NCBI RefSeq assembly: GCF_963921235.1
Contig: NC_086097.1
Coordinates: forward strand, 146,818,001-146,882,000
Direction of reading: 5' to 3'
DNA length: 64,000 nt
Source: Mobula hypostoma
Taxonomy: Eukaryota
Of this stretch, positions 44,555 to 60,454 are shown piece after piece. The notes under the pieces are model-generated. The model did no database searches, was not told the DNA's origin, and saw only the letters and a list, made by a program, of their open reading frames with translations. Within the stretch, counting starts at the first letter, position 1, and every line of letters starts with the position of its first letter. A program made the position numbers and the translations under genes.

Positions 44555-44692
44555 TCAAACACCTGTTTGTTTTATGCTCTGAAAGCTGATTCTTGTAGGT
44601 GACGTTGGTATAGACATAGCCCGTGCAACTCGTACTCTTAGCGTGTGATTGTCCTGCCATCGATGCCACCTCTTTCTAGCAGCCGTGCGCAC
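44555..44692 (-). CDS. CRHR2: CRH receptor terminal coding exon (helix 8, C-tail, stop)
   Basis: ctttgctttcag|GTG...GTT TGA = [45 protein letters not shown]. In phase with the 42-nt exon and matches the CRHR tail RKRWHRWQD...[15 protein letters not shown]. Confidence 0.95.
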
Positions 44693-58864: not shown

Positions 58865-58906
58865 CTCCCCATTCAGGAAACAGTAAAACACCGACACAAA
58901 GAAACC
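58865..58906 (-). CDS. CRHR2: CRH receptor 42-nt TM7 exon
   Basis: ttttacag|GGTTTCTTTGTGTCGGTGTTTTACTGTTTCCTGAATGGGGAG|gtaag = GFFVSVFYCFLNGE, the class B GPCR TM7 signature. NGE is CRHR2-type (CRHR1 has NSE). Confidence 0.95.
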
Positions 58907-59084
58907 CTGTAAAACACAAGGGTGTTAAATTGAGTTCTGAAGCACGTTTTGATAGTCACTGTTAGCTAAGCATCTAACTTGCACATGCTTAAGAAAAAGA
59001 TCCAGTTTGGATCATAAATTAAGGTGGCAAATTGCTTTGAGGCTCAGGTTATGAGTTGTCAGACAATCTTACCGGATTACCCAC

Positions 59085-59220
59085 CTGAAAGGACTGCAGA
59101 AATGAATTGAAGTAGAGGAAAGCAAAATGTGAGATGCCATCTTTGCTTGGATTGATGAAGAACAATATGTAGGTGATGCCAAGAAGGGGTAGCAGAACTA
59201 AAATTGCCTTCACTGCCTTC
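59085..59220 (-). CDS. CRHR2: CRH receptor exon (ICL3 end, TM6, ECL3, TM7 start)
   Basis: 136-nt exon, ctgcag|G...TTTCAG|gtgggt. Translates (R)[45 protein letters not shown], matching CRH receptor [17 protein letters not shown]...[16 protein letters not shown] is CRHR2-type (CRHR1 has ESFQ). Confidence 0.93.
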
Positions 59221-60454
59221 CTGCAGGACAGATGATGAAAGGAAAGAGAACCAGTTTTGTTAGTAAAATTACAGGTGGAAATTATTAACCATCATGAAAC
59301 ATTTCCGTACAAGCTTTAGTTTGAACCAAACGAGGATGCACAAGACTCTTATTTATACTCTCTTGCTGCTGCAGTTCAGGTGTAAATGGCTCCTGTACCA
59401 CACGCTCTGATTAAGGCAAGACAACAGATCCAAGCTCTCTGATTCTGTCTGCAGAAGAGAAGCAGCAGATTTTTCAGGGCAATTTTGGCACTTACCCACA
59501 AGACTGCTGACATACCCCCTCTAAAGATGAGCAATTTCATGCTTTCTACCCAGAATCAGTGACTTTGGTGATTGAGTTAGACTGAGCCTGTTGAATGCGA
59601 TAGATCATATCAGACCCCTCTGCAGCATTAAGATGCATGCAATGGCGTCCCAGTACTGACTTCTCTTGCTAGACCATCCTTCAAAAGAAATTAAACCTTC
59701 TATCTTGGTGGAACAATTGTCATTTGACAGTAATAAGAAAAGTAACACAAGTGTCCAAAGTTCGCAAAGAGATGCAGATTAAATAGTCTCCATTCTAATT
59801 GCAATAATATCTGACATTAATATTTGAATAGGCAAAATATTTGTACAATCACTTTTTGATCCATCGTTGCTTCCAGCCTTTTGTTTTTCTAATTGCTTAT
59901 GCATCACAGTGCATTGTACTGCAACCCCTCCTCACTCACTATTCCACATATCATGGTGGTGACATAGGACTCCTGTAGAACAATGTGGCAAATTGTATGG
60001 GTTAGGTAGGAATGGTCACATACACTACTACACTACAGGACATCTTATTCTATATTTTTCCTCATCTCCATAGCAACCGTTTATGCAGTTGGTTGATGAC
60101 TGCTCGATGGATGAGTCTCACAACCTACCCTGCATAGAGCCTGACAAAGATGCATAATCATGCTACTTCCATGCAGCAGCAGTCGGGATCTGCATTTTTG
60201 TGGACCTGCCATCTTTTAAAGCTGTAGGACCATTGAGGTGTGAATTCAATAGTCCTAAACAAATTTTGCAATTTTTAAAGCGCTCCAATCTGGCAAGTAT
60301 ATTAAGTGTACCTAATTGAATAGGATTCATTTCAATTTTCAGGCAATCATTTCAAAACAGTGGCAACAGGAAAATAACGTGAAACACTTGTTCTTTCCTC
60401 CTTTGTTTTTCTGGGAATACATTGCATTCAGCCTGCCAATGTTCATTTGTTATA

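Follow-up and report, generated by a model that had tools for sequence, protein, structure and literature searches.

Position 6.42b in class B receptors

In G protein-coupled receptors belonging to class B, the Thr at position 6.42b bonds E3.50 through water as well as Y7.57 (PMC10166269; similar statements in PMC10861504 and PMC7431577), and in the reviews PMC10166269 and PMC10861504 it is counted among the residues of the HETx polar network, in agreement with the role which the original prediction had given to it. Exchange of this residue in PTH1R results in high basal cAMP in case of T410P (PMC10166269), and T410R is described as a milder activator (PMC12167993). According to a statement of the former review, HETx mutations activate GCGR, VPAC1R, and CRF1R, too (PMC10166269). 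In GLP-1R, T353A is given with a 22-fold decrease in potency and an expression of 30% (PMC5050443), and T316 of CRF1R lines the pocket of the antagonist CP-376395 (PMC10886364).

No assay of a Thr-to-Ile exchange at 6.42b was found in the literature search. HETx mutants of CRF1R were reportedly subjected to a primary test by Yin et al. 2017 (JBC), and in a PTH1R scan of 1997 most substitutions of residue 410 are said to have activated the human receptor with little effect in rat. PTH1R T410P and T410R support the earlier suggestion of raised basal cAMP in the ray receptor, and GLP-1R T353A and the reported dependence of the PTH1R effect on the species background count against it.

The receptor described here shares with PTH1R T410P and T410R, which are known from Jansen metaphyseal chondrodysplasia, and with the HETx mutants of GCGR, VPAC1R, and CRF1R the affected position or network and likewise the loss of the Thr hydroxyl. 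Pro or Arg was introduced there by disease or in the laboratory, whereas the ray receptor carries a conservative Ile which is fixed in a whole superorder.

CRHR2 of Mobula hypostoma and the distribution of Ile316

The DNA stretch of 64,000 nt that was analysed (the window) contains, on its minus strand, the 3' end of the gene for a class B receptor, CRHR2 (Table 1). The nine 5' coding blocks are situated outside the window, up to approximately 189 kb upstream on contig C1 of the genome assembly (G000). After extension by 200 kb upstream, the RefSeq protein P0122, which bears the name M. hypostoma CRHR2, could be matched to 12 exon blocks. These are identical to the protein except for splice-flank overhangs and are open in frame throughout.

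Table 1. Features of the CRHR2 gene in the window (window coordinates)
Feature	Position	Strand	Remark
Ile316 codon ATT, position 6.42b	59202..59204	-	Thr in almost every other CRH receptor
Coding exon TM6-ECL3-TM7, 136 nt	59085..59220	-	AG/GT flanks
Intron, GT..AG, 178 nt	58907..59084	-	skipped in contigs of X15, X16, X17, X18, X19
Exon, 42 nt, GFFVSVFYCFLNGE	58865..58906	-	intact; Y363 (7.57b, x of HETx)
Last coding exon: helix 8, C-tail, TGA stop	44555..44692	-	

The isoform P0125 contains a hormone-receptor ectodomain (PF02793, E 6e-19) and a 7tm_2 domain (PF00002, E 1e-70), which identifies it as a class B1 (secretin-like) receptor. Among solved structures its best match is CRF2R (E 2e-195), followed by CRF1R (1.6e-190), and in a maximum likelihood tree of 34 rows it is located inside the CRHR2 clade (98/94). 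The gene is a CRHR2 orthologue, and a third CRHR paralogue is ruled out by this position in the tree. With the CRHR2 (CRF2R) of other vertebrates the ray receptor has in common both domains, the structure match, and the clade, but it differs by the Ile at 6.42b, by 11 further batoid-wide changes, and apparently by the lack of a CRHR1 partner in the genome. The first coding exon exists in two alternative forms, of the P0125 and the P0122 type, at approximately 147036000 and 147071000 of C1 (L017, L020). This arrangement resembles the alpha/beta isoform layout of mammalian CRHR2.

On the minus strand, the codon in question is contained in AAG GCA GTG AAG GCA ATT TTA, in which ATT is one base away from ACT. 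The translation of the exon aligns without gaps to human CRF1R and CRF2R, and codon, exon, and alignment agree with the predicted Ile in place of Thr in TM6. In P0125 this Ile is residue 316 and is situated five residues before P321, which matches the assumed position 6.42b as well as the CRF1R numbering in PMC10886364 (Thr316 at 6.42b, Leu319 at 6.45b, and Gly324 at 6.50b). The remaining HETx residues H156 (2.50b), E209 (3.50b), and the aromatic Y363 (7.57b) are kept with no deviation in any batoid, so that it is T6.42b by which the ray receptor departs from the canonical HETx lock. The same exon is altered in ECL3 as well (N/D333, S335, and K336).

That ATT might be an assembly or sequencing error, a private allele or part of a decaying pseudogene is a thought raised by the single base which separates it from ACT and by nothing more. 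Contigs of X15 and X16 (organism A; samples S9 and S10, both distinct from S1, the possible source sample) cover 59084-59222 with 0 differing letters and skip the 178-nt intron, the contig of X10 (organism D) spans the Ile codon and differs only at 59166, the same residue is present in seven other species, and the frame is open over the 12 blocks. Due to the identity of X15 and X16, the other species and the open frame, we regard such an explanation as hardly credible, and the codon holds where the original prediction had allowed for ACT in other sequence data. Spliced contigs were also obtained for X17, X18, and X19, but since their one or two differences inside the exon are unplaced, they do not fix the codon. 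In total, the intron is skipped in contigs of 5 of the 8 runs compared, with X1 and X5 giving 0 contigs, possibly as an effect of filtering. Because the intron is skipped, our guess is that X15 to X19 are derived from RNA.

Ile316 was observed in CRHR2 of all eight batoid species compared, namely M. hypostoma, M. birostris, Hypanus, Hemitrygon, Pristis, Narcine, Leucoraja, and Rhinoraja, which cover all four batoid orders (the taxonomy was looked up for four species). Among 168 near-full-length CRH receptor sequences from outside the batoids, 167 have a residue in this column, and these are Thr in 165 cases, Ile in one (the CRHR1-like protein P0006 of the lungfish Protopterus annectens), and Ala in one (CRHR2 P0229 of a jerboa, a single UniRef prediction); the rows are cluster representatives and isoforms and thus not independent species, and neither fragments nor additional isoforms of batoids were included. 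The sole full-length shark CRHR2, that of Mustelus, carries Thr, and no chimaera CRHR2 was present among the sequences compared. The comparison of TM6 across chondrichthyans that had been proposed therefore separates eight batoids with Ile from one shark with Thr. Three further class B exons of G000 likewise have Thr at the equivalent site (KAVRAT or KVVRAT).

In the maximum likelihood tree, the eight batoid CRHR2 form one clade (100/100), which is sister to Mustelus CRHR2 (100/97). Since this clade is uniformly Ile and its sister carries Thr, the exchange likely dates to the batoid stem, with one full-length shark CRHR2 compared. Judged from these sequences, the change is batoid-wide, fixed and not due to chance. 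P0006, a single database prediction, falls in the CRHR1 clade, so that the lungfish and the batoids share Ile at 6.42b on different paralogues and the lungfish Ile arose independently. P0006 has further off-consensus residues in columns 129, 262, and 343, where most or all batoids deviate as well.

Out of 262 conserved columns, all eight batoids are off consensus in 12 (Ile316 included) and at least one batoid in 37. The other batoid-wide changes at conserved columns include C129S, A134V, L226M, Y272V/I, and E336K. In the surroundings of 6.42b (N283-I290, L319, L320, and the other HETx residues), no batoid change was found that obviously replaces the lost bond. The branch length from the shark split to the tips is approximately 0.3 for batoid CRHR2 and 0.13 for Mustelus.

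The receptor was already annotated as CRHR2, and the substitution and its context appear to be new within the literature searched. No prior report of Ile316 or of a loss of CRHR1 in batoids was found in this search, outside of which most comparative-endocrinology and subscription journals lie.

CRHR1 and the CRF-family genes of the genome

CRHR1 counts as the stress-axis receptor of vertebrates, and in vertebrates other than rays and skates the pituitary stress axis is driven by it. Genome-wide searches of G000 with CRHR1 of whale shark, horn shark (a 125-residue stretch), and chimaera found no CRHR1. These queries gave 14, 24, and 24 matches, of which all with 51-78% identity are located within the CRHR2 locus, and the remainder (22-48% identity) can for the most part be assigned to other class B genes; class B receptors far more distant than CRHR1 were thus recovered by the same searches. 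The TM6-ECL3-TM7 exon as query gave a single match in G000.

Human CRHR1 is located upstream of MAPT. It is found with MAPT and KANSL1 at 17q21.31 (PMC4815063). On contig C91 of G000, a MAPT-like tau-family gene (10.87 Mb, plus strand) adjoins a KANSL1-like PEHE gene (10.93 Mb, minus strand). A shark-CRHR1 profile, which in a control recovers 11 exons of CRHR2, found no CRHR1 remnant within 400 kb of N-free sequence upstream of the MAPT-like gene (C91:10470001-10870000) and nothing in the 200 kb upstream of an integrin-beta gene (6.56 Mb). The only class B gene in the 400 kb is PTH-receptor-like by its translated exons (C91:10.56-10.59 Mb) and is presumably PTH3R, which has been placed on the human-17 paralogon (PMC3483286). 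An aquaporin-like exon was noticed near 10.50 Mb of the same interval (L073-L092, L053-L072).

A candidate for a diverged CRHR1 at C91:8.38-8.40 Mb was rejected, for the match of its TM3 exon to VIP1R (E 5.5e-16) is much stronger than that to CRF1R (6e-8). The MAPT-bearing chromosome accordingly carries a VIP-receptor-like class B gene at G000:C91:8379927-8398267 (L135-L137). In mammals, the MAPT chromosome is not known to carry a VIP receptor.

In the protein collection, 21 batoid CRHR2 proteins are present, and no batoid CRHR1 was found among the best 120 of 385 matches to a shark CRHR1 query. The 15 of 26 members listed for the shark CRHR1 cluster are sharks and a chimaera, with no batoid among them. 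For this one assembly of 200 contigs, with the expected location taken from human gene order, these searches indicate that probably no CRH receptor other than CRHR2 is left in the genome.

On the side of the ligands, five CRF-family matches were obtained in G000, comprising one UCN2/3-type gene, two LTF-type peptides, and one tandem pair. The two LTF-type peptides are presumably CRH2-like and UCN1-like. The UCN2/UCN3-type gene (L048, G000:C66:58639609-58639722) is the only one of its type among the five, and a second may be lost or missed. A gene encoding a CRH-binding protein is present as well.

The tandem pair consists of duplicate CRH1 genes (L051 and L050, G000:C1:217053692-217088724; 217.05 and 217.09 Mb) with 65% identical precursors. 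It follows a MuRF-type (TRIM55-type) exon at a distance of approximately 27 kb, and trim55 is reported to flank crh1 (PMC9353778). Both peptides are strongly diverged and read SLDVPLH and SLNVPLH compared to S-L-D-L-T-F-H in CRH, i.e., they carry V10-P11 with VPL replacing LTF. An origin as UCN2 copies is disfavoured, as the best solved-structure match of both is CRH, one of them bears the NCBI name 'corticoliberin', and their pro-regions are CRH-like: taken alone these match P0308, which holds a canonical CRH peptide, with E 1e-18 and 8e-14, and do not match L048 or L049. In a precursor tree, which was drawn with midpoint rooting and gave long-branch warnings, the VPL peptides are placed outside the CRH1 set (99/100).

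V10-P11 is common to both ray CRH1 peptides and the CRF2R-selective urocortins 2 and 3 with their L-D-V-P motif. Unlike urocortin 2/3, the ray peptides have a CRH1-like pro-region, position and best matches, and H13, R/K35, and D39 instead of G/N13, A35, and A39. Determinants of CRF2R selectivity are given as Pro11, Ala35, and Ala39 (PMC10886364), and due to the retained R/K35 and D39 the ray CRH1 peptides possess just one of the three. The VPL motif was also found in two precursors among 17 representative matches, P0306 (80% identical) and P0307 (50%), and is thus not confined to one genus. Skate crh1 genes are listed in PMC9353778, the text supplements of which give loci without the VPL motif.

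Possible effects of Ile316 on CRHR2 signalling

At 6.42b, Ile would keep the beta-branched shape of Thr and lose the hydroxyl that bonds E3.50b (via water) and Y7.57b, and due to this loss TM6 would swing out more easily. The expected result would be a lower activation threshold or a modest agonist-free Gs/cAMP output, short of a fully active receptor. The TM2-3-6-7 lock is thus likely weaker in ray CRHR2, and a lower threshold or raised basal cAMP has in our estimate a little less than an even chance. Our main reading is that the fixed, batoid-wide exchange likely loosens the inactive-state lock of an intact CRHR2, which is in all probability the one CRH receptor remaining in this genome, and on this reading we arrive at a nearly balanced judgement.

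Two other readings accept Ile316 as real. It may be nearly neutral, with Ile packing like Thr or being buffered by other batoid changes such that signalling is unchanged, and this would be in line with the many deviating columns (of the 262, 12 differ in all eight batoids and 37 in one or more), the longer batoid branch (approximately 0.3 compared to 0.13 in Mustelus), the Ile of the lungfish CRHR1-like protein and the Ala of the jerboa prediction, and the toleration of the change in all four batoid orders. On the other hand, Thr in 165 of the 167 other rows and in three further class B exons of the genome argues for a column that is normally under strong constraint, and Ile itself is invariant in the eight batoids; we hold near-neutrality to be unlikely, though worth serious consideration. 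Since 11 other conserved columns are changed in all batoids as well, Ile316 may have been carried along in a receptor that evolves faster, or its effect may be buffered, e.g., by L226M.

Alternatively, it may not be basal activity that Ile316 alters but the potency of agonists, the coupling bias or the surface expression, with a decrease being possible. Such an effect is suggested by GLP-1R T353A with its 22-fold loss of potency and its expression of 30% (PMC5050443), by the contribution of T316 to the CP-376395 pocket of CRF1R (PMC10886364), and by the fact that several of the accompanying batoid changes face the ligand (K262, Y272, and E336). Against it stand the two known PTH1R substitutions, both of which activate (PMC10166269, PMC12167993), and the review statement that disruption of HETx activates CRF1R, the nearest tested relative (PMC10166269). 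We consider this effect improbable, though a serious rival.

In our main reading, the exchange would belong to a re-tuning of CRH signalling in the batoid stem, in the course of which CRHR1 was lost and CRHR2 took over. CRH1 would have drifted or been selected towards the CRHR2-preferring Pro11 motif, with the loss of CRHR1 freeing CRH1 to fit CRHR2 and placing new demands on CRHR2. In its strongest form, namely that rays and skates lost CRHR1, that all of their CRH signalling passes through one CRHR2 with a gain-of-function break in HETx, and that CRH1 convergently acquired the Pro11 of urocortin 2/3, this scenario appears doubtful to us. Three changes on one branch do not demonstrate causation or the order of events.

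If it is true, a living clade without CRHR1 would show that CRHR2 is able to take over, and the division of labour between CRHR1 and CRHR2 would become testable on natural sequences. A substitution which is fixed in all four batoid orders and recurs in lungfish, at a site that causes disease in PTH1R, provides a natural experiment on the basal activity of class B receptors. Mammalian CRH and CRF1R-selective drugs may misreport the stress physiology of rays.

In the first 14 kb of the window, only repeats were observed. At 119-913 of the minus strand, broken gag-like frames with the look of an LTR retrotransposon by eye were observed, of which 160-612 is without a Pfam match, and LINE-type reverse-transcriptase fragments make up much of what remains of the window.
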